DNA from: Moraxellaceae bacterium
Lineage (GTDB): Bacteria > Pseudomonadota > Gammaproteobacteria > Pseudomonadales > Moraxellaceae
DNA: 64,000 bases
Assembly: GCA_003543245.1 (NCBI GenBank)
Contig: DPJB01000007.1
Span: 6,011 to 70,010, forward strand
Reading direction: 5' to 3'
The translations under genes were made by a program, and so were the position numbers. Shown here one piece after another: positions 20,057 to 47,773 of this stretch. Positions within the stretch are counted from its first letter, which is position 1. Every line of letters starts with the position of its first letter. A model generated the notes under the pieces. The model had not been told where the DNA came from and did no database searches. It worked only from the letters and a program-made list of their open reading frames with translations.

Positions 20057-20296
20057 GGTCGATTCATCAGAAAAGCTGATAATGAATCAACCCTATCAGG
20101 TTTGGCGGGCTTTGAAATCCCTTCCCTGTTGATTCCTCCGGGTATTGCTGCAGCTGCAGGAAGTTGTGGCTGGCAGACTTTTGCATTGCCCTGACCTGTC
20201 CGCTTCGTACCCGAATGCGGTATGGTCGGTCGTGGTTTTCTTGCTGGAACAGGCGTATCCCTGCCTGTCAGCCTCTGTGTTTACAGGTCTTGCATA

Positions 20297-21109
20297 ATGT
20301 CGTCTCTTCCGCCGTCGTCTTCCGCCACCCCGTCCTCTTCTGCTGCTCAGCGCAGTGTGCTGGTGATTGATGACTCGTCAGAAGATCTGGCCTTGTTGAC
20401 CGAATACCTGCGGCATGCCCGGTTACGGATTGCGGTGGCGTTTGATGGTCGTGAGGGTTACCAGAAGGCTTCCGTCATGCTGCCGGACCTGATCCTGCTG
20501 GATGTCCGCATGCCGCGTACGGATGGCTTTGCCGCCTGCCGCTTGCTGAAGGCGGACCCAAGGACCCGCGATATTCCGGTGATCTTCCTGTCGGGCTGCA
20601 ATGAACTGGATGACCGACTGCAGGGCTTGCGTCTGGGTGCTGTCGATTACATCAGCAAGCCGTTTGCGCCAGAGGAAGTGATGGCGCGCGTCAATATTCA
20701 TCTGGATTTGCGCTCGCGTCTGGTGCACCAGACGGTAGCAGCGGTGCCGGAAGAGTCCTTGTCTGCACTCAACAGCACGGTGGTTGCAGCCATGGAAATA
20801 CTGCAGCGGGACATTGGCAATCCACCTTCATTGCCCGAGCTTGCGCATCAGGTGGGCACCAATGAACGACGGCTTACCGAGCTGTTTCGTGAGTCCACCG
20901 GGATGCCGGTGTTTGCCTGGCTGAGGGAGGAGCGATTCCTGATCGCGTGCCGCATGCTGGCGGAGAGCGAGATCGACATTCAGCAGATTGCCGATCATGT
21001 CGGCTATGGCAGTGCCGGCAATTTTACGGCGATGTTCCGTGATCGCCTGGGTGTTACGCCCCGGGATTATCGGCAGTCGCAACGTGATCGCCGGGATGAT
21101 ATCAAATGA
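20297..21109 (+). CDS. response regulator, REC + AraC-type HTH output
   Basis: The receiver shows [11 protein letters not shown]...[13 protein letters not shown]...ISKPF. The C-terminal AraC HTH shows [17 protein letters not shown]...[30 protein letters not shown] chose ATG 20297. The stop overlaps the kinase start (ATGA). Confidence 0.85.
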
Positions 21110-23799
21110 GTACACGCATTGGCTTGCGCGCAGTGGCGCTGGTTGTGCTGTGTTTGCTGGCAGGACTCGTTCGGGCGCATACGGCCGCTGTGGATGCCGG
21201 GCACGACGGGAAGATTATTGCACTGGGTGCCGCACCACTGCTTGTGCTTGATGATCATGTTTCAGTGTTGCGTGACCGCACGGGAAAACTATCAGTGCAA
21301 CAGGTTGCTGATCCGGCGAGAAGTGCGGATTTTCATCTTGCGACCAGCAAGGATCTTGCGCCTGGCTATACGCATGATGCGATCTGGGTGCGTTTTACGC
21401 TGCAAAACCAGTCGACATTGCCACAAACCCGGTACCTTGAAATTGGTCCCCCGCGACTGCAGGATGTCAGGCTTTATTTTCATGACGGCAATAGCTGGAT
21501 ATCCCGGGCGGCAGGCCTGCGTGTGCCAGTGAACCAGCGTGAGGTGTTTTCACGGCAGTCGGTTTTTACGCTTGATCTTGTGGCGGGTGAAGTGCGCACC
21601 TTCTATGTCCAGGTGGTCAGCGGCAATGCCATCATGATTTCGGCCCGGCTGTGGCAGCCAGAATCGTTTTATGATGATGAGCGCTTTGTGGATATGGTGA
21701 ATGGTATCCAGTTTGGTGCCATTTTCCTGTTTTCTGCTTACGCCATGCTGCTGTTCTTCACGACACGAGAGCGTGCATTCCTGTACTTTTCCATTTCGAT
21801 GCTGACGTACGGTTTTTATGATGTTGCCATTCTTCAGTATGGCTTCGAGTTCATCTGGCCGCACTCGCCGGACTGGTCGCAGCGCAGCCCCGGGGTTTTT
21901 CTGGGGTTGGGGGTGGCATCCACCTGCTTTCTGATTGTCGAACTGGCGCAGTTGCGCGAGCGTTTCCCTCGCATTGCAGGTGTCATGCAGTGGATGGCAT
22001 GGGCGGCTCTTTTTCTTGTGCCGCTAATGCTGGTTGCAACGTACTCTTCTGTCGTTCCTCTGGCCAATGCACTGGCAATGTTGCTGGTGGTGACAAGTCT
22101 TGGTGTGAGTCTGGTGGCGGTATACCGGGGCTATCGCAGTGCCTGGCTTTTGCTGCTCGCTTTTGCAATGTTCTGGTTTACGTCAGCGCTTCGCCTGAGT
22201 CAGATTTTCGGATTTTTGCCGCATGGGCTGTGGGTGGATTATGCGCAGTCATGGTCGTTTGTCCTGAGTGGCATGGTCATGGCTGTGGTGCTGGCAGACA
22301 AGGTGACGCAATTCCGGCTGGAGCGGGAGCAGGCGCAGAGGGCCGTGCTGGCGGAACGGCTGGTGTCGGCACGACGTCTTGAAAAGCAGGTGACGGAGCG
22401 TACGACGGAGTTGCTGGAGGCCAAGGACAAGGCCGAAGAAGCCAGTCGGGCCAAGTCCACATTCCTGGCGCATATGAGTCACGAGTTGCGCACGCCATTG
22501 CACAGCATTCTGGGCTACAGCCGGCTGGTCCTGGACACGGATCTGGGGATGGTCAATCAGCGGCGCATCGAAGCAGTACAGCGCAGTGGCCGGCATCTGT
22601 TGACGCTGATTGACGAGCTGCTGGATTACGCCCGTGGCGAATCCGGTCGCCTGCAACTGGAACCTCGTCCGGTATATCTGCGGGCGCTGCTGGAGTCGGT
22701 AGTGGAGGATGTGTTGCCGCTGGCGCAGTCAGTGGGGGCAGACCTTCATACTGATATTGATCAGGCCCTGCCGCCAGTTGTACAGGCAGATGCGGTGCGC
22801 TTGCGACAGGTCTTGGGCAATCTGCTGACCAATGCCTGCCGGCACAGTCACGCCAGCCGTATCAGCCTGCAGGTCAAGTTGTTGCCGGAAATGAAGCTGG
22901 CAGCTGATCAGGCGACGCTGTGGATTGCCGTGCGTGATAACGGTACAGGCATTCCTGAAGCGGCTCGTGAGCGGATTTTCCGTCCGTTTGAACAGGTGGC
23001 GGCTACGGCAACCAGCCAGGGGGTGGGGTTGGGGTTGGCCATTGCCCATCAACTGGTGGGTCTGATGGGCGGGGTGTTGCAGTGCGATTGCCCGGCGACC
23101 GGTGGCAGCCTCTTTCATTTTCGCATCACGCTGTCGCTGGCCGCCGAGTCGGACCTGGCGGCAGTACAGGGGCCCCTCGCCCCGCATCAGTATGAGGGCA
23201 GGGTCCGGCGTATTCTGGTGGTGGACGATATTGCCGAGAACCGTGCGTTACTGGCGGACATTCTGGCCAGTTCGGGTTTTGACCTGGCGCTGGCAGCAAA
23301 CGGTGAGGCAGCGCTTTCCCTGCTGGCAACGCAGTCATTCGATGCCGCCATTATTGACCAGTTCATGCCTGGCTTGAGCGGGTGGCAGGTGCTTCGCCGC
23401 GCGCGGGAGCAGAAATGCTTCCTGCCCTTCCTGCTGCTCTCTGCCACCCGTCCGGTGCCACCAGTGGACTGGCCTGCCGACTTGTCATTTGCGGCAACCC
23501 TGATGAAGCCTGTTGATCCGGACGGATTGCTCCGCGCACTGGGCGGGGTACTGGGTCTGGGTACTGAGGAAAGCCTTCCCCGCCATCGTGCGGTCAACCC
23601 CCCACAGGAGTGGTGTCGTCCCTCTGCCCAAAGTCTGGATCGCCTGCTGCAGGCGGTGGAAATGGGGCAGGTGACAGACATTGAAGAGTGGGTGGATGAC
23701 ATCATCACGACCCATCCTGAGTCACAGGAGTTTGCACAGATTGTGCGCGATGCGGTCCGGCGGCTCGATTTCACAACCATTCGCCGGCTTCTGGAGTAG
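21106..23799 (+). CDS. hybrid sensor histidine kinase with 7TMR-DISM-type periplasmic and 7-TM input, HisKA, HATPase, REC and a ~110-aa C-terminal extension (897 aa)
   Basis: It has a signal/TM, then an extracellular region, then about seven hydrophobic helices (aa ~200-400). The H-box is [20 protein letters not shown], the ATPase G-boxes are DNGTGIP and GVGLGLAI, and the receiver shows [11 protein letters not shown]...[11 protein letters not shown]. Confidence 0.85.
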
Positions 23800-24033
23800 C
23801 TTGCCGCTTGTCGTGATTTCTGGCGGCCTGGTCAGAAACGCCCTTCTTAAAGTCGCTTCCCCATAAAAACCAGCAGGTTGAGCATAAGTCTTTACTACCC
23901 CAAAAGAGGTAATTTTGGAGAGTAAATGTGAACTGCTTCGCATTTTTCACACCCGGGGTGCCGGGTACGGACGAGTAAACCCAGGAAGGGGCCGGAGCGG
24001 GACACATAACCAGTGCAACCAACCGGGGCTTCC

Positions 24034-25029
24034 ATGACACATTCTACTTATCTGGCCAGGATGGCACTTTTGATGGCAGCGGTGCTGGCGCCGGCTGTCC
24101 ATGCTGCAGGAACCGCAGCAGGCACGGATATCACCAACACCGCCACAGCCACCTTTACTGATCCAGGTGGTACGCCGGTGACGGTGCCGTCTAATACGTC
24201 AATCTTGCAGGTCGACGAAATTCTGGATGTGACAGTGGTGTCAAATGATGCCGGCAACGTGGCTGTCACCACTCCTGATGCCGACGTACCGCTCAAGTTC
24301 ACCGTGACCAACATCGGTAACGGTGACGAGACCTTTGCGCTGACGTTCAACAACGCGCTGGGTGGCGACCAGTTCAATCCCTCCAATACCCGTATTTATC
24401 TCGATGCCAACGGCAATGGCACTTTTGAAATCGGCACGGACACACTGTATGTGGCCGGAACCAATGACCCCGTGCTGGCGGCTGATGGCACCCGGGTCGT
24501 GTTTGTGGTCAGTGATATTCCGGGCAGCCTTGCCAATACCAATGTTGGTCTGGTCAGCCTGATTGCCGAGGCCGTTACCGTACAGGCAACGCCGGGTGCC
24601 GATGCACCGGGTACCGCATTTGCCGGTCAGGGTGCGCTGGGCAGCGATGCCGTCGTGGGTAGCACGCAGGCTGATGCCACGGCGCAACGCGGTTTTGTGG
24701 TGTCGCAGGTAACCACAACATTCACCAAGAGCCAGGCCGTGGTGAATGATCCTGTGTTCGGTACCAATGCCGTGCCGGGTGCCACCATTACTTACACCCT
24801 TGAACTTGATGCTACCGGCTCCGGCAACCTGACCGGTGCGGCAATCAGTGACCCGATTCCTGCCGGCACCTCCTATGTTCCGGGCTCCCTCACGCTCAAT
24901 TCTGTAGCACTGACTGATGTGGCGGATGCCGATGCAGGCAGCGTGGTTGCAGGAACGGTGACGGTCACTCTGGGGACGGTTGCTGCACCGGCAACAAATA
25001 CGGTCACCTTCCAGGTGACGATCGACTGA
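24034..25029 (+). CDS. secreted DUF11-type (conserved repeat domain) protein, subunit-like (331 aa)
   Basis: The signal peptide is MTHSTYLARMALLMAAVLAPAVHA|AG. The mature N-terminus is AGTAAGTDITNTATATFTDPGGTPVTVPSNT. The C-terminal DUF11-like segment is VVNDPVFGTNAVPGATITYTLELDATGSGNLTGAAISDPIPAGTSYVPGS. The start is ambiguous (GTG 24013 or ATG 24034). Confidence 0.7.
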   Translation: MTHSTYLARMALLMAAVLAPAVHAAGTAAGTDITNTATATFTDPGGTPVTVPSNTSILQVDEILDVTVVSNDAGNVAVTTPDADVPLKFTVTNIGNGDETFALTFNNALGGDQFNPSNTRIYLDANGNGTFEIGTDTLYVAGTNDPVLAADGTRVVFVVSDIPGSLANTNVGLVSLIAEAVTVQATPGADAPGTAFAGQGALGSDAVVGSTQADATAQRGFVVSQVTTTFTKSQAVVNDPVFGTNAVPGATITYTLELDATGSGNLTGAAISDPIPAGTSYVPGSLTLNSVALTDVADADAGSVVAGTVTVTLGTVAAPATNTVTFQVTID

Positions 25030-25594: not shown

Positions 25595-25799
25595 TTCCCC
25601 GTCAGCGCTGTTGTGCTGATGGCGCCTGGCGCCTGCCTGTCCTGGCGGGTGCCGGGCGATTGTTCTCGGGAATACCTGTTTTGCCGGATGCCGGATGCAT
25701 CCGTTCAATCGCCTGATGGTCTGGGCACATCGATCAAAAATGGATTTTGACGCTTGCGTGGTGGCAATCGCCGCCGCGTTGCGTTGCCGGTTGAGTCCG

Positions 25800-25906: not shown

Positions 25907-27049
25907 ATGAAAATCAGAAAAAACGGAGTCAGGTTTGCGCTTGCAGCAAGTCTGACACTGTGCGCTCTGCCGGAGGCCTTTGCGGCCGGTACGGCGGCGG
26001 GCACAGACATCAACAACACCGCTTCGGTGGATTACGAGGTGGGTGGCATCAACCAGCCTGATGTGTCCAGTAATACGCTGACCTTCAAGGTCGATCGCAA
26101 GATCAATCTGACAGTGGCTGAAGTGGGTGGTGCCTCAACTGAGGTTGTGCCGGGCTCATCGGCCCGGGTGCTGACATTCACGGTAACCAACAACTCGAAT
26201 GCCCCGATGGACTTCCGTCTGGTTGCAACGCAGGACGCCATCAGTGCCACGACGGCGTTCGGGGATACCGACAGTTTTGATGTGACTGCGCCGTTGGTGT
26301 TTGTCGACGTCAACAATAACGGTGTTTATGACTCCCTTGTTGATACCGCCACATTCATTGATGAACTGCCGGCGGACATGCCGAAGACGGTCTTTATTGT
26401 CTCCACAATACCGGCTGGACAGATCAATGGCGATACAGCGGGTCTGACACTGACGGCAGTGGCTGCGCAGAGCACTGACGGCACTGGCGCCTATGTTGCT
26501 ACAGCCACCACCCTCGCGGCTGATGCTGTAGAAACCAACACTACCAGCACGGATAACGCTGCGTTCGTCGATACCGTGTTTGGTGATGTGGCCGGTGATA
26601 CCGATGGCGCAGGCGATGGTCGTCACAGTGACAACGACGAGTATGACGTTGTCACTGCTGCGATTGTTGTGGTGAAAAGCTCCACCGTGGTCAGTGACCC
26701 CTTCAATGGCACCAGCTTCCCCAAGGCCATTCCGGGCGCCGTTATCGAGTACTGCCTTGATGTGCTGAACAGCGGTACTGCTGCTGCTGGCTCCATCGTG
26801 CTGAGCGATGCCATTCCTGCCAATACCACGTATGTGGCTGGCAGCATCAAGTCGGCACCGACGGGTACGGGTTCGACATGCGATGTCGGAACCGGTCTTG
26901 CCGAGGATGACGACAACGCAGACGGTGCTGAAGTGGACGGTGCTACTGGCGACTTTGGTGCAACGGCGGCCGGTACGGTCACTGTACGCGCCGATAGCAT
27001 CGGTGCCAGTTCGCGTTTCAAGACGACATTCCGCGTGACAGTGGACTAG
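25907..27049 (+). CDS. secreted DUF11-type protein, paralogue of the 24034 gene (380 aa)
   Basis: I chose ATG 25907. The signal peptide is MKIRKNGVRFALAASLTLCALPEAFA|AG. The mature N-terminus is AGTAAGTDINNTASVDYEVGG. The C-terminal segment is VVSDPFNGTSFPKAIPGAVIEYCLDVLNSGTAAAGSIVLSDAIPANTTYVAGS. Confidence 0.7.
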   Translation: MKIRKNGVRFALAASLTLCALPEAFAAGTAAGTDINNTASVDYEVGGINQPDVSSNTLTFKVDRKINLTVAEVGGASTEVVPGSSARVLTFTVTNNSNAPMDFRLVATQDAISATTAFGDTDSFDVTAPLVFVDVNNNGVYDSLVDTATFIDELPADMPKTVFIVSTIPAGQINGDTAGLTLTAVAAQSTDGTGAYVATATTLAADAVETNTTSTDNAAFVDTVFGDVAGDTDGAGDGRHSDNDEYDVVTAAIVVVKSSTVVSDPFNGTSFPKAIPGAVIEYCLDVLNSGTAAAGSIVLSDAIPANTTYVAGSIKSAPTGTGSTCDVGTGLAEDDDNADGAEVDGATGDFGATAAGTVTVRADSIGASSRFKTTFRVTVD

Positions 27050-27154: not shown

Positions 27155-30100
27155 ATGACCAGATTTGTCAGGACATTATTGCGTTCGGCCTGCTTGCCAG
27201 AACTGCTGCGCCTTGTGTGCGCGGCAGTTCTGGCAAGCGGGCTGCTGCCGTTTGTGGCGGGCGCAGCAGAAGTCCTGAATACGGCAACCGCATCGTTCAC
27301 GAATGCCGGGGGGCTTCCCGTTACCCTGACATCCAACACGACGACGTTGCTGACCGTTCCACCACCATCACCATCCACGGTGACTTTTTATCAATATGCT
27401 CCCGGCGTGACGGGGAGTGTGGCGATCCCGTTTGATGGGGGCGAGTTTGACGACACCGGCAGTGGTGGGTTTCAGCCGCTGCCCGCTCCTGTTGATCTGA
27501 GTGGCAATGTCATCAGTCTTGCTGCTCCCGTTGATGTCCGGCAGACCACGGTTTTTCATGCGGATGAGCCGGTTTTCATTACGCTGACGGATGCCAATCG
27601 CAATACCGATCCCGTTATTCGCGAAATCATTGAGGTTCGCCTGACCAGCAGCACGGGTGATAGCGAAATTCTGCGCTTGCAGGAAACCGGGCCGAATACA
27701 GGCGTGTTTGCGGCCGTCATACAGACGGTGTCGCCTGCACAGCCGGTGACTTCGATGGATGGTCGCCTGTCTGTTGCCATCAACAGTACGCTGACGGTTG
27801 ATTATCAGGATATTTTCTACCCGCCAGACACATCCCTCACCGATGCCCTGGTGGACCCGTTCGGTATCGTCTTTGATTCCGTCACCGGCCTGCCGGTTGA
27901 TGGTGCCTCGGTCACCATCATCAATACCGTCACCGGCCTGCCTGCCCAGGTGTTTGGTGATGACGGCGTCAGTACATACCCTGCCACGGTGGTGACGGGC
28001 GGAACCGTCACGGACAGCAGTGGCTTTGTTTACAATCTGCCAACAGGCGGTTTCCGCTTTCCGTTTGTGCGCCCGGGCAGTTACCGTTTTGTGGTGACGC
28101 CGCCGGGCGGCTACGTTGCCCCCTCTACGGTTGCGCCAGGCAGTTTGCCGGACGGGCCGTCAGGTCCTTACGCCATTGCAGCCGGCTCATACAGCGATGT
28201 GTTTGTTGTGGTGCCTGGGCCTGCCCTGAATATTGATATTCCGATTGATCCCATGGCGCCAGGTCTGGTCATGCAGAAGTCGGTGTCGAAAACCGAAGCG
28301 TCGGCAGGTGACTTCCTGCAGTACCGCCTGAGCGTGCAGAACACGGATGCCGCCCTGACGGCCACAGCAGTGACCGTGACGGACCGCTTGCCTTTCGGCA
28401 TGAAGTACCAGTCCGGCTCACTCATCATCAATGGCGTAAAGCAGCCTGATCCGGTGGTTGCAGCCGACAGCCGTACACTCAGCATTGCACTGGGAAATCA
28501 GGCGCCATCAAGTACGACGCAGATCAGTTATGTCGTCATGCTGGGTGCCGGTATCGCCATCGGTGATGCAGTTAATTCTGCGCAGGCGTCCGGCAATGCA
28601 GGCGGCATGGTCTCGAACGTGGCGCGGGTGGCGGTGCGTATCAAGGCCCCGCTGTTCAGTGGTGACTTCACAATTATCGGCCGTGTGTACGACGGCGACT
28701 GCACCACGCCCTGGGACCAGTTGCGTGGTGTGGCCAATGCCCGTGTCATGCTGGAAGATGGCACGTATGTAGTGACGGACGCCGATGGCCAGTACCACTT
28801 TGAAGGTGTACGCCCCGGTACCCATGTGGTGCAGCTGGATGCGGAAACCTTGCCGGGTGGTCTGGAGCCGGTTTCCTGCATCGACAATACCCGTTTTGCC
28901 GGTCGGAACTTCTCGCAGTTTGTTGATGTCAACGGCGGTGGTTTGTGGCGTGCAGATTTCCATACGCGTGTGCGCACAGCTGATGTAGGCATTCGCATGC
29001 AAAGCCGTCTGGATGTCGTGCCTGCAGGCTCATCGCAGACGGGCGCGGTGGTGCAGGGGCTGACGCATCGCATTGATGTGATTGGTGCACTGGCAGTCGA
29101 TAATCTGAGCGTCATGGCGATGCTGGCGCAGGGTACCGTGTATGTGCCCGGCTCCGCACGACTGGATGGCAAGCCGCTGGCTGATCCGGTTTTGTCAGGG
29201 GATGTGGCCAGCTTCACGCTGGGCAAGGCTGATCAGGGCAACTGGGCACATGTGATCGAGTTTTCCTCACGGCCCGTGGTGAAGTATCAGGACCCCGTCT
29301 TCAACAGATACACACTGCATGCAGAGTTTGACAGTTGTAGTGCCGAGTTATCACCTGCTGTGCAGGCTGAACTGAAACGGTTGGTGACAAAGCTGCAGGA
29401 TCAGGACATTGATGCCATTGCCCTGACAGGTCATACCGATAACCGTGCCTTGACGGCTCGCTGCAAGAGGACGTTTGCGGACAATTACGAGTTGTCTCGT
29501 GCCCGCTCCGGTGCAGTGGCGATTGTGCTAGCCAGAGAGCTGGGGCTGAAGCCCTCGCAGGTGGCGGTAACAGGGCGCGGGGCGGATGCACCCTTAACAG
29601 GTAACGACACGGCCAAGGGCATGGCCCGGAATCGCCGGACGGACGTTATCGTGGGACATCGCCAGCGCAATCAGGCACCGGTGGTATTACCGACACAGTG
29701 CGAGTCACCTTATCTCGCCAAGGCAGTAGCACGATTTGAAGCGATACCCGGAAAGTCGGCCCAGACGCCTGCGGCCGAAATTCGTCTGAGCTGTCCGATG
29801 ATGGCGGCACCTGTTGCGCCTGCTGCAGCGCAGTCAGAAGTGCCTGCTAGTGCTCCTGCTGTAACCACTGTGGTCAGCACCACGGCAGAAAGCGGGTATG
29901 CCAAGGTGGCCGTCAATGGGGCTGCCCGGCCGACGTTGCCGGCGGATATGCAGGCTCGTCAGAAAGAGCGTCTTGCTACTCTGGATGACGTATCTGCCAG
30001 TGGTGCCAGCAATGACTGGTTCAGCGTCAAGGCATCGGGGCCGGTGTGGCTGTTCCCGGCCGAAGATCACAACCCCCGTTCTCCGGCAGTGCGTATTGCC

Positions 30101-33100
30101 ATCCGGCATGCCCCGGGCGAGTCCGTGATTCTCCGGGGGCCGGATGGTCTGGTGGTCAGTGCGCTGAATTTTGATGGCGTCCAGAACAGCCCTGATCGCA
30201 AGTCGGCTGTCAGTGTCTGGCGTGGTGTGCCTCTGAAGGAGGGTGCCAATCGTTTCACGGCAGAGATTCTGGCGGCAGATGGAAGTATGGTAACAAGCCT
30301 TGAGCGCGTCATTCATTATGCCAATGCGCCGGTGCGTGCCGAGCTGGTGCCCGAGCAGTCCATCCTGATGGCAGATGGTATTAACCGTCCGGTACTGGCC
30401 ATCCGTTTGCTGGATCGTGATGGCAAGCCGGTGCGTGCCGGGGTCACCGGTCCGCTGGACATCAGTGCTCCCTATGTTTCATGGGAGCAGGTACAGCGTG
30501 AGCAGGAACGTCAGCTCGCAGGCATGGAGAGGTTCCAGCCGCATTACCAGATCGAGGGCGACAACGGTATTGCGTATGTCGAACTTGCCCCAACGACAGA
30601 GTCAGGTGCGGCGGTAATTTCCCTCACCTTCCAGACCGGACCGGACACCTCCCGTCGCCAGGAAGTGCGCGTCTGGCTGGAGCCGCGTGCGCGCGACTGG
30701 GTTGTGGTGGGTTTTGCCGAGGGCACGGTCGGTTACAACACGCTCAAGGACAATGTGCAGCCGCTGCTGAACGAGGGTGTGGAAGAAGGTGCATGGAGCG
30801 ACAGCCAGGTCAGCCTGTATGCCAAGGGCCGCGTGCTGGGCAAATGGTTGTTGACCATGGCGTTTGACAGCGACAAGAAGCGCGACAATGAGGGCCTGCT
30901 GTCCACGATCGATCCGAACGAGTACTACACGCTGTACGGTGATGGTGCCGAGCAGCGCTATGACGCGGCCAGTCAGGAAAAGCTGTACCTGAAGATGGAG
31001 CGTGGCCAGTTCTATGCACTGTTTGGTGATTTTGAAACCGGGCTTAGCCAGACCCAGTTGTCGCGTTACAGCCGTACCCTGAATGGTATCAAGGCAGAAA
31101 ACGCCAGTGGTCCTGTGAACTTCATCGTGTTCGCTGCCGAAACGCCACAGAATTTTGCCCGTGATGAAATCCAGGGCGATGGCACCTCCGGACTGTATCG
31201 CCTGTCCAATCGTGGCATTGTCCTGAACGGCGAACAGATCCGCATTGAGACGCGCGATCGCCTGCATAGCCAGAACATCCTGCAAAGCCGCACGCTGATG
31301 CGTCATATTGATTACGACATTGATTACAGTGCCGGTACCCTGTTTTTCCGTCAGCCGGTCAACAGTCGTGACACCAACTTCAATCCTGTGTTCATCGTGG
31401 CCGAATACGAAACGTTCGGTGTGGCGGACGAGTACCTGAATGCCGGTGGCCGTGTGGCAATGAATCTCAACGGCGACAAGGTGACGGTGGGGGTTTCTGC
31501 CCTGCGCGATGAAAACAGTCTGGGTGCCACAGACCTTAATGGCGCCGACCTGAAAGTGAAGCTGGCAGCAGATTCCGAATTGCGGGTTGAAGCGGCGTTC
31601 AGTGAGGGTCAGCAGGGGCAGTTGTCGCCGGATGGTCAGGCCTGGCTGGCCGAGCTGGAACATCACACCGGCAAGATTGATGCGCTGCTGTATGCGCGTC
31701 GTCAGGATAGCGGCTTTGGCGTCAGCCAGCAGAATGCGGCGGAAAGTGGCCAGCAAAAAATCGGTGCGGATGGCCAGGTGCGTCTGGGTGGCAACTGGTC
31801 GGTGCTGGGCCAGGTCTACAATCAGGAAAACCTGAACACGTCGGATACCCGGGATGCCGTACTGGGTAAATTGCAGTACCAGACGGATCGCGGTGCTGTG
31901 GGTGTGGGCGCGCAGGTCGTCAATGATGCTGCTGGCAGTGGCACACTGGCAGGACAGGACTTCCGCTCCGAGCAGGCCACCGTCTCTGCCAATCGTTTCT
32001 TCATGAACCGCAAGCTGGAGCTGAGCGCTCAGGCCGATACAGCGTTGGGCGGTACCAGTGACAGCGTCGACTTCCCCAATCGTTATGTGTTTGGTGCGGG
32101 GTATGCGCTGACGGATAATGCCCGCCTGCTGATCGGCCAGGAGTTTACGGACGGGGGCTCGTTTGATACCAGTACCACGCGCGCCGGTATTCAGGTGATG
32201 CCGTGGAAGGGCGCCCGTCTGAACAGTACCCTGAACCAGAGCCAGATGAGTGAAAACGGCCCGCGGACATTCGGCCAGTTTGGCCTGACCCAGGCCGTTT
32301 TGCTGACGGACAAGTGGGGGCTGGATTTCAGTGCCGACAGCAGCCATACCTTCAATGATTCCGGCAAGCCGGTACTCGTCATTAATCCGGCGCATCCGGT
32401 GACGCCAGGTGGCACCCTTAACTCCTCCGTGGGGCTTACCGAGGACTTCAATGCTTTCAGTGCCGGAGCCACGTATCGTGAAGCGATCTGGAGCTGGAAT
32501 GGTCGTGCAGAAACACGGAACGGCGAAACCACAGACCGTTACGGGCTGGTGACCAACTTCCTGCGCCAGGCGATGTCTGGCGTGGCCTTTGCATCGACGG
32601 CTGAAATGTTCCGTACCGAAGAAAACTCCGGTGCAGACGGTTTGCTGGCCAGTCTGGACCTGTCATGGGCATGGCGCCCGCTTGGTGTGCAGTGGTCCAT
32701 TCTGGATCGGCTGGAGTTCCGCTACGAAGACATCGAGAGCGGTAGCGGCGTGGCAGGAAGTGGACTGTTCGGTAACAACAGCCTGATTGCCAATAATGCC
32801 AGCACCCGTCGCATCATCAATAATCTGGCGCTTAACCGTGTCTCGCGTGAATGGACGGACAAGGATCGCCAGGGCAACCTGTTCCGCCGTTACGAGCGCA
32901 ACCAGTGGTCGCTCTATTATGGCGCCAAGTATGCGATGGATACATTTGATGGCGAGGAGTATTCCGGCTACACCGATTTGCTCGGTGTGGAGGTGCGGCA
33001 CGATATCAGGAACTGGCTGGATGTCGGCGTGCAGGCCAGCTCGCTCAATGCGTGGAGCGCCGGTAACCATGCCTACTCCGTCGGGCCCATGGTAGGCGTG

Positions 33101-33283
33101 TCGCCGGTGACCAACGGCTGGATCACGCTGGGTTATAACTTCCGCGGCTTTACCGACCGTGATTTTGATGCAGCGCGCTACACAGCAGCGGGCCCGTACC
33201 TGCAACTGCGCTTCAAGTTTGACCAGAACAGCTTCAGCCGACGTGACCAGGACTCGGTTGCGACGGACAAGGTGGCACCATGA
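27155..33283 (+). CDS. 2042-aa secreted multidomain protein: prealbumin/Cna-B-like and DUF11 modules, internal OmpA_C-like peptidoglycan-binding domain, ~1100-aa C-terminal predicted beta-barrel
   Basis: It has a signal peptide. The mature N-terminus is AAEVLNTATASFTNAGGLPVTLTSNT. A CarboxypepD_reg-like module reads GIVFDSVTGLPVDGASVTIIN...GSYRFVVTPPGGY. A DUF11 module reads GDFLQYRLSVQNTD..VTVTDRLPFGMKYQSGS. The OmpA-like domain (nt ~29309-29655) reads LTGHTDNRAL...NYELSRARSGAV...NRRTDVIV. The C-terminus has alternating-pattern strands ending GPYLQLRFKF plus a short tail. Confidence 0.75.
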   Translation: MTRFVRTLLRSACLPELLRLVCAAVLASGLLPFVAGAAEVLNTATASFTNAGGLPVTLTSNTTTLLTVPPPSPSTVTFYQYAPGVTGSVAIPFDGGEFDDTGSGGFQPLPAPVDLSGNVISLAAPVDVRQTTVFHADEPVFITLTDANRNTDPVIREIIEVRLTSSTGDSEILRLQETGPNTGVFAAVIQTVSPAQPVTSMDGRLSVAINSTLTVDYQDIFYPPDTSLTDALVDPFGIVFDSVTGLPVDGASVTIINTVTGLPAQVFGDDGVSTYPATVVTGGTVTDSSGFVYNLPTGGFRFPFVRPGSYRFVVTPPGGYVAPSTVAPGSLPDGPSGPYAIAAGSYSDVFVVVPGPALNIDIPIDPMAPGLVMQKSVSKTEASAGDFLQYRLSVQNTDAALTATAVTVTDRLPFGMKYQSGSLIINGVKQPDPVVAADSRTLSIALGNQAPSSTTQISYVVMLGAGIAIGDAVNSAQASGNAGGMVSNVARVAVRIKAPLFSGDFTIIGRVYDGDCTTPWDQLRGVANARVMLEDGTYVVTDADGQYHFEGVRPGTHVVQLDAETLPGGLEPVSCIDNTRFAGRNFSQFVDVNGGGLWRADFHTRVRTADVGIRMQSRLDVVPAGSSQTGAVVQGLTHRIDVIGALAVDNLSVMAMLAQGTVYVPGSARLDGKPLADPVLSGDVASFTLGKADQGNWAHVIEFSSRPVVKYQDPVFNRYTLHAEFDSCSAELSPAVQAELKRLVTKLQDQDIDAIALTGHTDNRALTARCKRTFADNYELSRARSGAVAIVLARELGLKPSQVAVTGRGADAPLTGNDTAKGMARNRRTDVIVGHRQRNQAPVVLPTQCESPYLAKAVARFEAIPGKSAQTPAAEIRLSCPMMAAPVAPAAAQSEVPASAPAVTTVVSTTAESGYAKVAVNGAARPTLPADMQARQKERLATLDDVSASGASNDWFSVKASGPVWLFPAEDHNPRSPAVRIAIRHAPGESVILRGPDGLVVSALNFDGVQNSPDRKSAVSVWRGVPLKEGANRFTAEILAADGSMVTSLERVIHYANAPVRAELVPEQSILMADGINRPVLAIRLLDRDGKPVRAGVTGPLDISAPYVSWEQVQREQERQLAGMERFQPHYQIEGDNGIAYVELAPTTESGAAVISLTFQTGPDTSRRQEVRVWLEPRARDWVVVGFAEGTVGYNTLKDNVQPLLNEGVEEGAWSDSQVSLYAKGRVLGKWLLTMAFDSDKKRDNEGLLSTIDPNEYYTLYGDGAEQRYDAASQEKLYLKMERGQFYALFGDFETGLSQTQLSRYSRTLNGIKAENASGPVNFIVFAAETPQNFARDEIQGDGTSGLYRLSNRGIVLNGEQIRIETRDRLHSQNILQSRTLMRHIDYDIDYSAGTLFFRQPVNSRDTNFNPVFIVAEYETFGVADEYLNAGGRVAMNLNGDKVTVGVSALRDENSLGATDLNGADLKVKLAADSELRVEAAFSEGQQGQLSPDGQAWLAELEHHTGKIDALLYARRQDSGFGVSQQNAAESGQQKIGADGQVRLGGNWSVLGQVYNQENLNTSDTRDAVLGKLQYQTDRGAVGVGAQVVNDAAGSGTLAGQDFRSEQATVSANRFFMNRKLELSAQADTALGGTSDSVDFPNRYVFGAGYALTDNARLLIGQEFTDGGSFDTSTTRAGIQVMPWKGARLNSTLNQSQMSENGPRTFGQFGLTQAVLLTDKWGLDFSADSSHTFNDSGKPVLVINPAHPVTPGGTLNSSVGLTEDFNAFSAGATYREAIWSWNGRAETRNGETTDRYGLVTNFLRQAMSGVAFASTAEMFRTEENSGADGLLASLDLSWAWRPLGVQWSILDRLEFRYEDIESGSGVAGSGLFGNNSLIANNASTRRIINNLALNRVSREWTDKDRQGNLFRRYERNQWSLYYGAKYAMDTFDGEEYSGYTDLLGVEVRHDIRNWLDVGVQASSLNAWSAGNHAYSVGPMVGVSPVTNGWITLGYNFRGFTDRDFDAARYTAAGPYLQLRFKFDQNSFSRRDQDSVATDKVAP

Positions 33284-36200: not shown

Positions 36201-38220
36201 GTTCACGCCGAATACCTTGGGTGCCAACGATCTGTCGCGCATGGAGTTGCAGATCACGAATCCATCGCCATCGACAGCGTTGACGGGTCTGGCCATTAGT
36301 GACACTTATCCGGCCGGCAATCTCAGTACAGGTGTGTTCATGCAGAATGCGCCGACACCCAATGCGACGAGCAGTTGCGGCGGAACCCTGACGGCGGCGG
36401 CCAGCACCTCGTCACTATCCCTTGCGGGCGGTTCGCTGGCAGCAGGCCAATCCTGTTTGCTGGCGGTGGATGTCCGGGCCAACCCTGGCACAGTGCCCGA
36501 TACCTACTACAACGTCACTGGTCGTGTGCGTTCCAGTCAGGGGATAGGCTCCACTGCCGCAGATGCCCTCTATATCGTGCGTGCCCCGACCATCACCAAG
36601 TCCTTTCTCTCCAGTCCGGTGACACTGTCAGCAGGCTCTGCAACCAGTGTCTTGCGCCTTGTGCTGGAGAGTAATCACACGGCCACGATCAATGGCGTGT
36701 CTTTTACGGATACGTTCCCGTCCGCGCCGGCACAGATGCGTTATGTGAATACCGTGTCAAATGGCTGTGGTGGTACGTTGACGGATGCTTTGGGAGCCGC
36801 ACTGGTGCCTAACTCGAGTGTCGGCCTGCGCCTGAGCGCGGTGACGCTCACGGCAGGCCAGGTGTGTACGCTGGATGTCACGGTTTCGGTGCCTGCCGCC
36901 GGGACTTATTTCAACCAGACGTCTGGCGCAACAGCGACCACCAGCGGGTTTACCTCTCCAGGACCGGCCAGCAACATTGCCTCTCTGGTGGCTAATTTGT
37001 CGGCGCCCACCGTCAGCAAATCCTTTGCTGTGGCTCAGGCCGGTGTAAATGTACCGGTGACCATGACCATTACGCTGAACAATCCCAATACGGAGGTTGT
37101 TACCGGCGTCAACCTGACGGATACCTATCCGGGAACACTGGTGAATGCTCCAGCTCCCGCTCTCGGCAATTCTTGCGGAGGCAGTGCAACGGCAGCGGCA
37201 GGCACGGCTTCGCTGGCACTGGTGGCAGGCAGTATTCCCGCGTCCGGCTCCTGCACCATCACAGTGTCGGTGCAGGCCAGCGCGGCAGGCGCATTGACCA
37301 ACTCAACCGGTGCGGTGATCTCTGCCAACGCCAACGCAGCAACCGCAGCAACGGCCAGCATCACTTTCCTGTTGCCGCCGACGGTTGCCAAGTCCTTCAG
37401 TCCTGCCAGCCTGTATACAGGAGAGGCAAGCCTGCTGACGATCACGTTGACCAACCCGAACACGCTCGCCATTTCGGGTGCTGCGTTCACGGACAACTAT
37501 CCTGCCGGCCTCGTAAATGCAGTGGTGCCGGGGGCGGCAACCACCTGTAGTGGAGGCGCTGTGAACGCCGCATCCGGCGGCAGTGCGCTGGCACTGTCCG
37601 GTGCAACACTGGCAGCGAGCAGCAGCTGCACAGTGACGGTGAGTGTGTGGAGTGCCGTCGCCGGCGTTTATCAGAATAATACGGGTGCAGTAACGACCAC
37701 CAATGCGGGCTCGGGAGCATCAGCCAGTGCCACGCTGACCGTCGTCATGCCGCTGCCGTCCCTGAGTGTCCTCAAGATGGTGGCGGTGGTATCCGATCCC
37801 GTGAACGGGTCGGTCAACCCGAAATCCATTCCGGGGGCGCTGTCCGCCTATTCAATACGGGTCACCAATAGCGGTCCTGGCACAGTCGATAACAACACCC
37901 TCATTGTTTCAGATCCCTTGCCGGCAAATGTTGAGCTGTTTGTGGGGGATTTTGATGGTGCCGGGTTGGGCCCTGTTACCTTTGTCAACAGCACTCCAGG
38001 AAGTGGTCTGAGCTGGGTATACACGGCTCCGGGCAATATGACGGATGGCATCGATTTCTCGAATGACAATGGTGCGACCTGGACGTATGTCCCTGTCCCG
38101 GATGGCAACGGTTTTGACAGTGCCGTGACCAATATACGCCTCAGGCCACAAGGTGTGATGAGTGCGGCTGGTGCAACGAATCCTTATGCCGAATTCATTT
38201 TTCGGGTCAGGATCAAGTAG
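33280..38220 (+). CDS. 1646-aa secreted repeat protein (novel N-terminal region, DUF11 domain, eight Cys-pair repeats, terminal DUF11 domain)
   Basis: The start ATGA overlaps the stop of the previous gene. The signal peptide is ..LLFLLATPAWA|AF. Repeats begin (A/S/T)KSF.. and each has FTD.(Y/F)P and two Cys. The terminal domain is VVSDPVNGSVNPKSIPGALSAYSIRVTNSGPGTVDNNTLIVSDPLPANV. Confidence 0.8.
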   Translation: MKCDHTMNKSFAARVMPGLLVWLCSLLFLLATPAWAAFSITKTSSPVFYTDSAKNLYCNYESFRVTSTTAVTDAWTRIDTFSSSLGSGSYEDGKFHFGSFYAGESKAAFFYVCSSFSGSTLAGQGYSVRIYDRDPALIGASQLASQSFSVSIDNTVIQANPNTVSVIFSGPNPGVLGGIITMVVEGDTGTIGCVNPPSTCAGAQAGPLAFTAASLQDWRADAYEMIGSNIALTGGNSGSYDNQLYIPVLSASSTTSYKATYYFRAASTTSVTTTLSPIGYIASGTQIKHTSTTNGAYSGAGLLPIEPAINTLTVSDKLVSDATLPAQGGRVTYTIRVHNSGSDPANLDSIYDTLPAGVSYVAGSSSFSGVALPDPVVSGSDRIWSSSFSIPANGTRDLVFQADIAAAPGTYVNQASARLGSTIIDTTLSTGDYVPALASTVVLSAPVIAKSFTPTARAVNGSSQMVITLTNNNAAHALSSVSFTDTYPAGLININPAGVVTSCAAGTLTVSASSIVLTGAFLPAGSSCTVTADTTSASPAIYTNTTGTVTSSNGGTGNSAAAGVTFTTLPTISKSFAAATIPVGGVTTLNFVITNNGSVGITSLAFTDLFPSGLVLASPTALTPVAACGGTVESWDGTTTSALAAGAPGLRLTGGVLATAGGSCTFSVNVTAAAAANYDNTTSGVSSSLGTTGPVSNTASLRVLAPLVPAKSFSPSTIGRGQSSRLIVTLTNPNPVAITGAAFTDTYPANLLNAATPSPGGSCGGIVTAVAGGGSLALSGGTIPASGSCTVETNVTSDVVNVSGYVNTIAAGAVSSADAGSSTVPASATLIVNATPTLTKSFSFDVAAATTTMTLTITNNHTAGISGLSFTDVFPSGMLVDSPLTGTTSCGGTLEGWNGSTASALAANAQGIRLTGGAIAGAYPASCSITLRIRVTSGGVYLNQTSGVAMTAPFSGTGSVSNIATLIAPIVIKTFTPNTLGANDLSRMELQITNPSPSTALTGLAISDTYPAGNLSTGVFMQNAPTPNATSSCGGTLTAAASTSSLSLAGGSLAAGQSCLLAVDVRANPGTVPDTYYNVTGRVRSSQGIGSTAADALYIVRAPTITKSFLSSPVTLSAGSATSVLRLVLESNHTATINGVSFTDTFPSAPAQMRYVNTVSNGCGGTLTDALGAALVPNSSVGLRLSAVTLTAGQVCTLDVTVSVPAAGTYFNQTSGATATTSGFTSPGPASNIASLVANLSAPTVSKSFAVAQAGVNVPVTMTITLNNPNTEVVTGVNLTDTYPGTLVNAPAPALGNSCGGSATAAAGTASLALVAGSIPASGSCTITVSVQASAAGALTNSTGAVISANANAATAATASITFLLPPTVAKSFSPASLYTGEASLLTITLTNPNTLAISGAAFTDNYPAGLVNAVVPGAATTCSGGAVNAASGGSALALSGATLAASSSCTVTVSVWSAVAGVYQNNTGAVTTTNAGSGASASATLTVVMPLPSLSVLKMVAVVSDPVNGSVNPKSIPGALSAYSIRVTNSGPGTVDNNTLIVSDPLPANVELFVGDFDGAGLGPVTFVNSTPGSGLSWVYTAPGNMTDGIDFSNDNGATWTYVPVPDGNGFDSAVTNIRLRPQGVMSAAGATNPYAEFIFRVRIK
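34615..37750 (+). repeat. eight tandem, diverged coding repeats of roughly 105-140 aa inside the 1646-aa gene
   Basis: Repeat starts read from the translation are AKSFTPTARA, SKSFAAATIP, AKSFSPSTIG, TKSFSFDVAA, IKTFTPNTLG, TKSFLSSPVT, SKSFAVAQAG and AKSFSPASLY. Each has ..SCGG.. and ..SC(T/S).. cysteines. The boundaries are approximate. Confidence 0.75.
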
Positions 38221-41205: not shown

Positions 41206-41952
41206 TCAGGCGTCTGATGCCGTGCGACGTTTTTCCATCAGGCGGCCAAAGAAAAGCCCCGCCTCAAACAGCAGCCACATCGGCACTGCCAGCATTGCCA
41301 TGGAGATGGCATCTGGCGGTGTCAGGAACATGGCAACAAAGAAGCAGCCCACGATCACATAGCGGCGCTTGTCGATCAGGCTGTCGCTGCTCACGATGCC
41401 GGACCAGATCAGCATGAACACGGCCACCGGGATTTCAAAGGTAAAGCCGAACACCAGGAACAGCTTCAGCACAAAATCCAGATAGAGATTGATGTCCGTC
41501 ATCATCGCCACGCCTTCCGGTCCCACTTTCGTGAAGAAGCCCAGTACAGCCGGCAATGTGATGAAATAGGCAAAGGCCACACCCACGTAGAACAGCAGCA
41601 CGCTGGAGACCAGCAGCGGCACGGCAATCTTCTTTTCATGCGTGTAGAGCGCTGGGGCAATGAACCCCCAGATCTGGTGCAGCAGATAGGGCACAGCAAC
41701 AAACAGGCACACAAAGAACGTCAGCTTGAACGGTGCCATGAAAGGCGCCGTCACATCGGTCGCAATCATGGTGCTGCCAGCGGGTAACAGTTCACGCAGG
41801 GGCAGTGAGACGGCGGCGTAAAGGTCGTTGCGGAAATACACCAGGGCAAAGAACAGCACCACCATGACGCTGATGATACGCATCAGTCGTGTGCGCAGCT
41901 CGATCAGGTGGGCGACCAGCGGCATGCTCTCGTGCGGGGTGTTGTCATTCAT
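41206..41952 (-). CDS. tatC: twin-arginine translocase subunit TatC
   Basis: It begins MPLVAHLIELRTRLMR and has six hydrophobic segments. It overlaps the tatB stop. Confidence 0.92.
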   Translation of the reverse strand: MNDNTPHESMPLVAHLIELRTRLMRIISVMVVLFFALVYFRNDLYAAVSLPLRELLPAGSTMIATDVTAPFMAPFKLTFFVCLFVAVPYLLHQIWGFIAPALYTHEKKIAVPLLVSSVLLFYVGVAFAYFITLPAVLGFFTKVGPEGVAMMTDINLYLDFVLKLFLVFGFTFEIPVAVFMLIWSGIVSSDSLIDKRRYVIVGCFFVAMFLTPPDAISMAMLAVPMWLLFEAGLFFGRLMEKRRTASDA

Positions 41953-45039: not shown

Positions 45040-45092
45040 TGCTGAGGCATGGCATTCGTATTTAATGGCGCGATTTTATCGAGGAGCGCGTG

Positions 45093-46028
45093 ATGCAGAT
45101 TAGAGCATTGATCATGCTGGCGGTGGCCCTGGTACTAGGGGGTATTACCGTATTTCTCGTCAACAACTTCCTGCAAAGTGAGGTTGGGGACCAGGGGCGG
45201 GTGCAGAAGTTGCGCACAGTGCCGGTTGTTGTGGCAGCACAGGATATCAAGTCAGGTACAAAGCTTGAGGCCGTGATGCTGACAGCTGTTGACTGGCCGT
45301 CTGAAACGGTGCCCGATGGCGTCTATGCGGATGTAGCAACCGTGATTGGTGAAAAGCCTCCTGTGCTGTTGCAGGAAACCAAGCGCGGTGAAGTCATCCT
45401 GCCGTACAAACTGTCTCCGCACGGTGCCCGTGGCGGGTTGCCGGCGCGTATTCCTGAAGACATGCGTGCAACCACCATCCCGGTTTCTGAAATCACCGGC
45501 GTGGCAGGTTTCATTGCGCCTGGCGATTTTGTGGATGTACTGCATACATCGGCAGTAGGACGCAGTGACGAGCTGCCGGTGACCAGGGTGCTCATGCAGA
45601 ACGTACAGGTGCTGGGTATCGACCAGATAAGCTCACAGGACGATGCCAAGCCAAAAATTGTGAATGCAGTGACGTTGCTTGTGAACCCGGAGTCTGGTCA
45701 GCGGCTGACACTGGCGCTGGCGACTGGCTCGCTCAGCTTGCTGCTGCGTAACGAGTTTGATGCATCGCTGCTTGCTACAAAAGATATTGCCTGGCGCCAG
45801 CTGGTGCCAGAAGAAGCGGTCGCCGTTGTAGAGCAGCCAAAGGTGGTCAGGCGCGAGCGTCGTGTCGTCACGATAATAAAGCAACAGGCACCAGCAACAG
45901 CACTTCCGGCAAAAACCTCAGATCGTGTTGAGGTAATTCGTGGGCTGAATGTCTCTCGACAGGATGTCCCCAGCACACCGGCAGCCAATGATGCGACGTC
46001 AGCAAAGCCTGACGAGGCAAAACCCTGA
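45093..46028 (+). CDS. cpaB: Flp pilus assembly protein CpaB/RcpC
   Basis: It has an N-terminal TM, a SAF-like segment VPVVVAAQDIKSGTKL, and an RcpC-type C-terminal region. Confidence 0.8.
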   Translation: MQIRALIMLAVALVLGGITVFLVNNFLQSEVGDQGRVQKLRTVPVVVAAQDIKSGTKLEAVMLTAVDWPSETVPDGVYADVATVIGEKPPVLLQETKRGEVILPYKLSPHGARGGLPARIPEDMRATTIPVSEITGVAGFIAPGDFVDVLHTSAVGRSDELPVTRVLMQNVQVLGIDQISSQDDAKPKIVNAVTLLVNPESGQRLTLALATGSLSLLLRNEFDASLLATKDIAWRQLVPEEAVAVVEQPKVVRRERRVVTIIKQQAPATALPAKTSDRVEVIRGLNVSRQDVPSTPAANDATSAKPDEAKP

Positions 46029-46042
46029 GTACTGGAGAGATC

Positions 46043-47762: not shown

Positions 47763-47773
47763 GGGGGTGTGTC

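Follow-up and report, generated by a model that had tools for sequence, protein, structure and literature searches.

Several described surface systems combine subunits of immunoglobulin (Ig)-like fold, or a very large outer-membrane barrel, in a manner comparable to the locus considered here, which lies in a 64,000-nucleotide stretch of Moraxellaceae DNA (contig DPJB01000007.1, positions 6,011 to 70,010 of the forward strand; hereafter, the window) and centres on a gene for a protein of 2042 amino acids (aa), referred to below as the giant. The PapC and FimD ushers consist of a barrel with periplasmic Ig-like domains and are encoded in operons with Ig-fold subunits; these subunits have an incomplete fold and an N-terminal extension, and their fibre has a donor-less tip and shaft subunits with both donor and acceptor. 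In fimbrial operons, stem-loops behind the major-subunit genes set differing expression levels. The type V pili of Bacteroidia (FimA/Mfa1) polymerise by strand exchange without a chaperone-usher pair and have a terminal anchor subunit in the outer membrane; their subunits are lipoproteins that are proteolytically activated and exported by the lipoprotein pathway. Sortase pili (EbpB, BcpA, SpaD, RrgB) are built from isopeptide-type Ig domains and tied to peptidoglycan by a basal pilin. Very large barrels with periplasmic N-terminal parts are represented by SlpA (30 strands), SprA of the type 9 secretion system (36) and LptD (26), and SlpA combines such a barrel with a wall-binding domain. Lastly, the TasA-superfamily (AbpX) loci encode a tip, an anchor for the cell wall and two subunits, one major and one minor, that are joined by donor strands (10.64898/2026.01.04.697558), and BsaA employs a donor-strand 'exchange and lock' with isopeptide bonds (10.1101/2024.11.04.621531).

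Four genes, in the order S1-S2-S3-giant, form a self-contained cassette, probably for a fibre, in which the giant would supply the outer-membrane component. The giant carries an N-terminal tag of 31 aa that is shared with the pilin-like proteins S1 and S3, then a pilin-like stalk, an OmpA-like domain and a predicted outer-membrane barrel; a large adhesin-like protein, BIG, is encoded immediately downstream. Judged by analogy, the closest functional parallel to the giant would be an usher and a terminator (or anchor) subunit united in one protein, and it would also resemble the cell-wall anchors of TasA-superfamily loci or the basal pilins of sortase pili. Unlike the PapC/FimD systems, the cassette produced no Usher or PapD match in Pfam and encodes no two-domain chaperone, and the giant's barrel has ~32 predicted strands against 24. 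The putative donor is a 31-aa hairpin of the CLIPPER domain type, where theirs is a single strand of the pilin fold, and the pore itself bears a donor tag and a pilin-like stalk, with a covalent lock being possible. PapC (2vqi) was a loose Foldseek match to the modelled barrel (E = 4e-5, template modelling (TM) scores of 0.16/0.31). With respect to type V pili, the folds are different and a lipobox was found in none of the five proteins (S1, S2, S3, the giant and BIG).

Sortase pili differ in that neither an LPXTG motif nor a sortase accompanied the cassette in any locus, the host is diderm and the isopeptide-type module is fused to a barrel; the giant would be attached to the wall non-covalently, by its OmpA domain, and in some clades only. 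SlpA, SprA and LptD were distant from the giant (TM-scores 0.1-0.25, 5-10% identity), without a sequence-level relationship and with other partners and domain composition. The TasA-superfamily loci resemble the window in having two-component and cyclic di-GMP (c-di-GMP) genes nearby, and the cassette's possible lock would resemble the intermolecular isopeptide that secures the donor strand in BsaA and in the (archaeal) threads of Sulfolobus. However, these systems belong to monoderm bacteria or archaea, use SLH, LPXTG or membrane anchors and a dedicated signal peptidase, and have no outer-membrane pore; homology to them is not established.

Domain anatomy of the giant

As the original prediction had stated, the giant is encoded by a single open reading frame (ORF) for 2042 aa on the forward strand, beginning with ATG; its stop codon is overlapped by the start of the next gene at 33280 (ATGA). 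AlphaFold2 (AF2) models were obtained for aa 36-900 and, on an alignment of 46 relatives, for aa 850-2042. The first of these had a predicted local distance difference test (pLDDT) value of 88.7. Behind the tag and a Pro-rich linker, the stalk opened with two beta domains (aa 75-366); the CLIPPER/DUF11 domain after them (aa 371-495) was complete, and one of CarboxypepD_reg/SdrD_B-like type followed (aa ~505-600). Two modules that had been predicted in this part were recovered by Pfam, namely the first DUF11 (PF01345, aa 371-480; 29.4 bits against a cut-off of 24.6) and the SdrD-B-like module (CarboxypepD_reg/SdrD_B, aa 524-563; E = 8.6e-10). A prealbumin-like module was borne out in part; AF2 gave a confident beta domain at aa ~237-320, and the CarboxypepD_reg match to this region was weak (E = 2.4e-4) and fell under the Pfam cut-off. 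A second DUF11 module had no support from Pfam, which returned zero matches for aa 601-720; AF2 nevertheless produced a beta-sandwich there. Within the CLIPPER domain, Asp410 and Asn474 were invariant among the 46 homologues while Lys376 was the majority residue; by sequence, the domain is complete with the Lys-Asp-Asn isopeptide triad, and the bond itself is predicted. The Foldseek neighbours of the N-terminal 800 aa were BcpA, SpaD, the basal pilin EbpB, RrgB and SdrD (E = 3.5e-12 to 1e-8), such that the best structural neighbours of the modelled stalk are sortase-assembled pilins and MSCRAMMs.

The OmpA domain expected in the middle of the protein was found at aa 725-827 (PF00691, E = 4.7e-14, 52.9 bits against a cut-off of 27.2), spanning profile positions 2-98 of 98. 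NCBIfam matches to the segment were of the TssL/MotB type, and Foldseek paired it with PomB (3wpw, TM-score 0.65). The GHTD, LSRAR and NRR motifs lined up with three solved domains (9v99, 4b62 and 5u1h), which have GHTD or GHSD and LSERR or LSQAR at the corresponding places, and the GHTD/LSxxR residues were also kept in the homologues P0002, P0009 and P0034. Therefore, the diaminopimelate-binding Asp and Arg are present, and the domain is a putative peptidoglycan clamp with intact binding residues.

This domain was optional, being missing in most relatives, including those of Lysobacter, Burkholderiales and all Sphingomonadales. Its insertion sites were two different loops of one Ig module, depending on clade. 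In the window's clade it followed the strand ending '...VIEF'; in Microbulbifer and some others it was placed ~100 residues earlier, ahead of the core of the module. These site classes were assigned by a heuristic motif that left 67 sequences unclassified. Identity of the OmpA domain between the site groups (median 43%) was equal to that within groups; hence, independent acquisitions are not claimed, and a single origin with relocation would be possible. The start of the insert in the window was flanked by a Cys pair (FDSCSAEL and LTARCKRTF; 29255-29420, aa ~701-755), which was kept in the same-site relatives P0002 and P0009 and absent from the Microbulbifer-type insert. Another Cys pair, around the post-insert hairpin (CESPYLAK...IRLSC), was kept family-wide; both pairs are likely to be periplasmic disulfides.

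The original prediction described a topology puzzle, in that extracellular modules appeared to precede a peptidoglycan-binding domain. This dissolved for the most part because OmpA sits in the loops of the stalk's last Ig module, and that module must share the compartment of the peptidoglycan, i.e., the periplasm; a periplasmic stalk is thereby favoured. In ushers, LptD, BamA and SlpA, the soluble part N-terminal to the barrel is periplasmic. We infer, as the simplest topology, that all parts of the giant N-terminal to its barrel would be periplasmic. An Ala/Pro linker, also foreseen, followed at aa ~881-960 with pLDDT below 50 and is probably disordered.

The C-terminal ~1100 aa, predicted to be barrel-like, proved to be composite, consisting of two Ig-like domains (aa ~961-1177), a conserved segment (aa 1181-1412) that was poorly modelled, and a strand-rich region (aa 1413-2020) to which the barrel-like description applied. 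The second Ig-like domain matched Invasin_D3 weakly (E = 0.21). The AF2 model of aa 850-2042 had a mean pLDDT of 72.6 and a predicted TM-score (pTM) of 0.62, with pLDDT rising to 80-92 across most of aa 1413-2020. This region contained 32 strands of 8-19 residues each, connected by short turns and longer loops, many of them with dyad hydrophobicity. Foldseek matches in the PDB with a probability of ~1 were to outer-membrane barrels only (SlpA, LptD, MtrB, SprA, PapC, TonB-dependent receptors and TamA). The alternative that the C-terminal region forms a soluble beta-helix was examined with AF2 and Foldseek, and the region modelled instead as a transmembrane-type barrel; on the model, aa 1413-2020 are barrel-like, with no close solved relative. 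At sequence level, nothing was matched by the last ~1200 aa in Pfam, NCBIfam or PDB sequences, nor when the PDB was searched with the family profile. The conserved segment included the motifs VVGFA.GT.GY, LYAKGR, YGDG, FGD..TG and DYDIDY..GTLFF, and may represent a gate or, alternatively, additional strands of the barrel into which a plug-like domain, possibly aa ~1333-1400, is inserted; the strand number could exceed 32 if aa 1181-1340 add strands. RFKF, taken originally for a terminal aromatic motif, occupies aa 2017-2020; with a tail of 22 aa behind it, it is not the C-terminus.

An anchored platform or usher-like pore had been suggested, and this idea is partly supported. It fits the operon, in which genes for pilin-like subunits precede the giant and one for a large adhesin-like protein comes after it. 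Membership of the ushers failed: neither the whole giant nor its segments matched Usher (PF00577) at E up to 10, and no usher was found in PDB sequence or profile searches. With ~32 predicted strands rather than 24, no Usher match and no PapD-like gene, the giant is not an usher by the tests run. Nor is it of the autotransporter type, given the ~32 strands and the OmpA domain plus more than 500 aa of other domains that lie between stalk and barrel. A SlpA/OmpM-type architecture was likewise not seen, as there was no SLH match in Pfam and no coiled coil in the nearly all-beta AF2 models.

The family, its cassette and the split CLIPPER domain

Searches with the barrel region identified at least 1235 proteins in a collection clustered at 90% and, with 50% clustering, 3237 representatives, of which 1291 had E <= 1e-30; the barrel was C-terminal in all. 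The relatives were encoded in more than 530 representative genomes or species, among them Moraxellaceae, Microbulbifer, Lysobacter, Steroidobacteraceae, Burkholderiales, many Sphingomonadales and Asticcacaulis, and had been labelled 'OmpA family protein', 'DUF11 domain-containing protein', 'uncharacterized repeat protein (TIGR01451 family)' or 'hypothetical'. The best match among representative genomes had 67% identity, and a relative with 97% identity and identical gene order was present in Logan run SRR32573202. The searched literature contained no account of the cassette (its coverage was incomplete and absence is not proven); the family and the cassette appear to be uncharacterised. The 'OmpA-like domain-containing' adhesin of Acinetobacter silvestris (9IFR) was rejected as a relative of the giant, since its OmpA domain is C-terminal and it has no barrel.

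Conservation of the cassette was evaluated through tblastn of the window proteins against 80 related loci. In Alpha-, Beta- and Gammaproteobacteria alike, virtually all loci whose upstream sequence was long enough kept the order S1-S2-S3-giant. Exceptions included the Lysobacter loci L013, L016 and L018, as well as L010, L019, L020 and L035, where the S2 homologue preceded the two pilin-like genes or a single gene gave the best match to both S1 and S3; the order or number of genes in the cassette thus allows some variation. Clustering of all ORFs in the 80 loci revealed no further conserved partner, and no sortase, PapD-like chaperone or ATPase occurred as a conserved neighbour. In keeping with the absence of LPXTG, S1 and S3 ended in F.V.I[DN] and BIG in FRVRIK. 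In Sphingomonadales, the cassette was set among unrelated housekeeping genes; BIG-like genes, and a response regulator with a 7TMR-DISM kinase, belonged to some clades only.

The tag was identified by BLASTP, where similarity between the giant and S1 was limited to 31 aa (giant residues 35-65, 55% identity, pairwise E = 1e-5), and it was also present at the mature N-terminus of S3; a subunit-like N-terminal motif had thus been correctly predicted. Its pattern was [IV]-x-N-[TIV]-A ... aromatic ... S-N-[TR]-V, and with the Pro-rich linker it was kept in giants of all three proteobacterial classes. The tag Asn was conserved in at least 90% of 46 giant homologues and at least 80% of 101 S1/S3 homologues. 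In the latter, the best-conserved residues were this Asn, Lys239, where the C-terminal domain starts, an Asp-Pro a short way behind that Lys, and Asp280 of D-x-[IL]-P; all 101 sequences stopped right behind a strand F-x-V-x-[IV]-[DN].

Complete CLIPPER domains contain an intramolecular, Asp-catalysed isopeptide between Lys and Asn, with the Asn in the last part of the domain (PMC12617251). When the S1 C-terminal domain was compared with Pfam alone, it matched DUF11 at positions 11-83 of 114; with either its own or the giant's tag appended, the match extended to 98-99. The DUF7507 score rose from 21.0 bits to 35.8 with its own tag and to 26.0 with that of the giant, ending at position 103 of 105, while a reversed tag appended to the same domain produced no gain. 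The tag alone matched DUF7507 at positions 85-103. A custom hidden Markov model (HMM) was built from 59 complete DUF7933 repeats of BIG-like proteins, with Lys5, Asp39 and Asn99 in the consensus; the S1 and S3 domains covered its positions 11-91 and 13-90, and the tags positions 92/93-120. It was shown, in profile coordinates, that the C-terminal domains of S1 and S3 are without their last hairpin and that the tag is equivalent to that hairpin, including the isopeptide Asn.

Proposed assembly and its alternatives

Counted by role, the cassette thus has two proteins that both donate and accept, one or two that only accept, and one that only donates, which is exactly the set that a polar donor-strand fibre needs. 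The reading we favour, with a probability of roughly 0.5, is that the giant is a non-usher export pore fused to the basal anchor of a donor-hairpin fibre. The barrel, of ~32 or more strands, would be the conduit across the outer membrane. On its periplasmic side, the two Ig-like domains would lie beside the barrel, followed by the flexible Ala/Pro linker and the pilin-like stalk, and in the window's clade the OmpA-like domain of the last Ig module would clamp the assembly to peptidoglycan. Subunits would link head to tail, each giving its N-terminal hairpin to the truncated C-terminal domain of a neighbour, and the joint might be locked by a spontaneous Lys-Asn isopeptide in S1, S3 and the tip protein. 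Polarity would follow from a tip that only accepts, a shaft that both donates and accepts, and a base, the giant, that only donates. It would be the fibre, not the giant's stalk, that traverses the barrel, and the giant's own tag would keep the base of the fibre in the periplasm, secured in this way to peptidoglycan. We infer that the hairpin is donated in trans, that the joints are covalently locked, that the barrel lets the fibre pass and that the stalk lies entirely in the periplasm. Completion in trans is argued for indirectly by the acceptor-only proteins, by the extra tag of the giant on an unrelated scaffold and by the Lys/Asp/Asn triad.

A fully covalent version, in which the tag of the giant captures the last subunit covalently, would define a surface-fibre class of Proteobacteria, so far unrecognised, that is assembled without sortase, PapD-type chaperone or ATP, with the giant as pore, terminator and anchor, and would make the split CLIPPER domain a native counterpart of SpyTag/SpyCatcher. 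This extension is tentative, and we consider it rather doubtful.

Several observations weigh against the favoured reading. The gain in score on adding the tag was modest when compared with 200 composition-matched shuffles (z = 0.9-3.9), and was absent for the C-terminal domain of BIG. AF2 rendered the giant's tag as four short strands (pLDDT 78-88) docked within the same chain; an unstructured tag had been expected, and the argument from an 'orphan donor' was downgraded for this reason. The tag may belong to the giant's own first domain, with S1 and S3 completing themselves in cis through circular permutation, and the terminal Asp/Asn of S1 and S3 could act as the intramolecular partner of the conserved Lys. 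Pilin-like domains of the isopeptide type are typically extracellular. As for the barrel, aa 1181-1276 had pLDDT below 50, TM-scores to known barrels were just 0.1-0.3 with 5-13% identity (Foldseek), and the 22-aa tail beyond the terminal aromatic makes an atypical beta-signal; closure of the barrel and the number of its strands are predictions. The family as a whole is known from sequences and models.

The same structural evidence can be accommodated by a self-displaying, autotransporter-like adhesin, in which the stalk is threaded through the giant's own barrel, OmpA and the barrel-proximal Ig domains stay in the periplasm, and S1, S3 and BIG attach outside. Structurally, the stalk is closest to pilins and MSCRAMMs that are displayed outside the cell, extracellular stalks are a typical place for CLIPPER domains (PMC12617251), the disordered linker of 80 aa could span a pore, and a barrel this wide might pass folded Ig domains. 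Such threading is nonetheless unlikely, because the location of OmpA within loops of the last Ig module of the stalk places at least that module in the periplasm, and there is no linker of pore-spanning type N-terminal to it. In addition, known autotransporter barrels have 12-16 strands, compared with ~32 here.

The tag is open to another interpretation, as a targeting signal read by the giant or by S2. The giant would then be a non-polymerising export pore, akin to two-partner secretion, and its own tag an autoinhibitory plug or pseudo-substrate, while S1, S3 and BIG would each be a separate protein, secreted or on the surface. The tag does behave as an autonomous 31-aa module, found at the mature N-terminus of three proteins and joined to unrelated downstream domains, AF2 docked that of the giant in cis, and conservation of the cassette would be expected. 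However, BIG and S2 lack the tag and would require another signal, while an address label explains neither the conserved Lys/Asp/Asn triad nor the precise match between the tag and the portion missing from the truncated domains; this interpretation was also given little weight. A purely structural role is the least plausible of those considered. In this case, a porin-like barrel and its stalk would tether the outer membrane to peptidoglycan, after the manner of SlpA/OmpM or OmpA, and the neighbours would be independent envelope proteins. Although the top Foldseek matches were Deinococcus SlpA complexes (8ae1, 8agd) and the binding residues of the OmpA-like domain are intact, TM-scores to SlpA were just 0.21-0.25, SLH domains and coiled coils are absent, and most family members have no recognisable peptidoglycan-binding domain. 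It also leaves a cassette of pilin-like proteins that share the tag unexplained.

If the favoured reading, a donor-hairpin fibre with the giant as pore and base, is true, it would describe a new pilus or adhesin assembly pathway of diderms, found in hundreds of alpha-, beta- and gammaproteobacterial species and so far lacking both a family model and a literature. The giant would contain one of the largest single-chain outer-membrane barrels known, and fusion of the pore to a basal pilin, with an optional peptidoglycan clamp, would combine energy-free polymerisation with retention in the envelope. A natural split isopeptide domain, if true, would be useful in protein engineering. The conservative result alone, i.e., the family, cassette and topology, fills an annotation gap for proteins now called 'OmpA family', 'DUF11' or 'hypothetical'.

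Partner genes and surroundings

S1 and S3 were full-length paralogues (31% identity, E = 1e-23), and S1, S2 and S3 were all signal-peptide proteins with CLIPPER-type repeats; positions are given in Table 1. Among 65 loci, S2 had neither the tag nor the conserved Lys, and NP.P replaced D.LP, thus putting Asn-Pro in the place of the catalytic Asp; its final strand was as in S1 and S3. S2 is a candidate for a cap or for a chaperone that binds the tag. The very strong stem-loop between S2 and S3 is possibly an attenuator or an mRNA-stability element, giving S1/S2 and S3/giant different levels of expression.

BIG had an S1/S3-type truncated domain in its last ~150 aa (nt ~37759-38217; K..DP, D.LP, ending FRVRIK). 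In 18 related loci, the downstream BIG-like proteins had variable N-termini and a constant C-terminal domain that closed on the strand seen at the end of S1 and S3; the tag was found in none of the 18, while the Lys and the Asp-Pro were kept. BIG is a candidate tip adhesin.

The N-domains of S1 and S3 contained a conserved D-x-N-x-N-G...D loop (YLDANGNGTF in S1, FVDVNNNGVY in S3), which from its sequence looks like a calcium site. Fibre polymerisation of AbpX is calcium-dependent. The S1 N-domain gave a weak single-sequence match to AbpX in the region of this loop (E = 0.03), which a profile of the S1 family failed to recover; homology of S1 to TasA/AbpX is therefore an unconfirmed lead.

Table 1. 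Positions of the cassette, its regulators and the parts of the giant within the window (nucleotides; aa numbers refer to the giant)
Feature	Position (strand)	Basis or description
Response regulator (REC + AraC HTH)	20222-21109 (+)	Pfam
7TMR-DISM hybrid histidine kinase	21106-23799 (+)	Pfam
S1, pilin-like subunit, 338-aa ORF (start codon uncertain)	24013-25029 (+)	Signal peptide, tag, N-domain, truncated CLIPPER-like domain
S1 tag	24106-24219 (+)	
S1 C-terminal CLIPPER-like domain	~24685-25026 (+)	Truncated ahead of last hairpin
S2, ~183 aa	25043-25594 (+)	Single small CLIPPER-like Ig protein
Stem-loop between S2 and S3	25623-25658 (+)	15 pairs (12 G-C), no T-run
S3, 380 aa	25907-27049 (+)	Same tag (nt ~25985-26098) and truncated C-terminal CLIPPER-like domain
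Giant	27155-33283 (+)	ORF
Giant, Sec-type signal peptide, aa 1-37	27155-27265 (+)	...FVAGA/AEV; judged by eye from sequence
Giant, N-terminal tag, aa 38-68	27266-27358 (+)	EVLNTATASF..SNTTTLL, then Pro-rich linker PPPSPS
Giant, pilin-like stalk	27377-28954 (+)	Pfam, AF2, Foldseek, invariant residues
Giant, Ig module hosting OmpA in one loop, aa ~605-720 and 853-880	28967-29794 (+)	AF2 strands flank insert; comparison with relatives
Giant, OmpA-like (MotB/TssL-type) peptidoglycan-binding domain, aa 725-835	29327-29659 (+)	Pfam, NCBIfam, alignment, Foldseek
Giant, Ala/Pro-rich linker, aa ~881-960	29795-30034 (+)	pLDDT 36-49 (AF2)
Giant, two Ig-like domains, aa ~961-1177	30035-30685 (+)	AF2 pLDDT 80-92; second invasin/Big-like
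Giant, most conserved segment of the family, aa 1181-1412	30695-31390 (+)	Invariant columns; pLDDT 30-88
Giant, predicted outer-membrane beta-barrel, ~32 long antiparallel strands, aa 1413-2020	31391-33214 (+)	AF2, Foldseek; ends ...YLQLRFKF
Giant, 22-aa C-terminal tail and stop	33215-33283 (+)	Sequence
BIG, 1646 aa	33280-38220 (+)	8 DUF7933 repeats and DUF11, no tag; translationally coupled to giant

The response regulator and 7TMR-DISM kinase were paired upstream of the cassette solely in the closest relatives (L001, L004, L015 and L081), and are likely to be clade-specific regulators of it. Downstream, a 248-aa ORF (41206-41952, -) occupied the place where the 97% relative has tatC, tatB and tatA, after psd and rhodanese genes; this ordinary housekeeping context argues for a chromosomal cassette and not a mobile element. 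A Tad/Flp-type pilus cluster was located at 45090-55527 (+), with a G+C content of 0.51-0.55 against ~0.59, and encoded RcpC/CpaB, a secretin with a pilus N-terminal domain, a TadE/G-like protein and two ATPases, one ParA/TadZ-like and the other a T2SSE ATPase of the CpaF type. A second fibre system, of a conventional kind, is thus present in this organism close to the cassette. A PAS-GGDEF-EAL protein, of the kind concerned with c-di-GMP turnover, was encoded ~10 kb upstream of the cassette (12624-14693, -). The region at 6000-12000 had a low G+C content (0.51-0.53) and unusually strong GC skew (0.15-0.26), and is possibly acquired DNA; it encodes a metallophosphoesterase (9164-10702) and a bacterial-like globin-domain protein (10708-11637), and a further ORF (6647-7741) matched nothing in Pfam.

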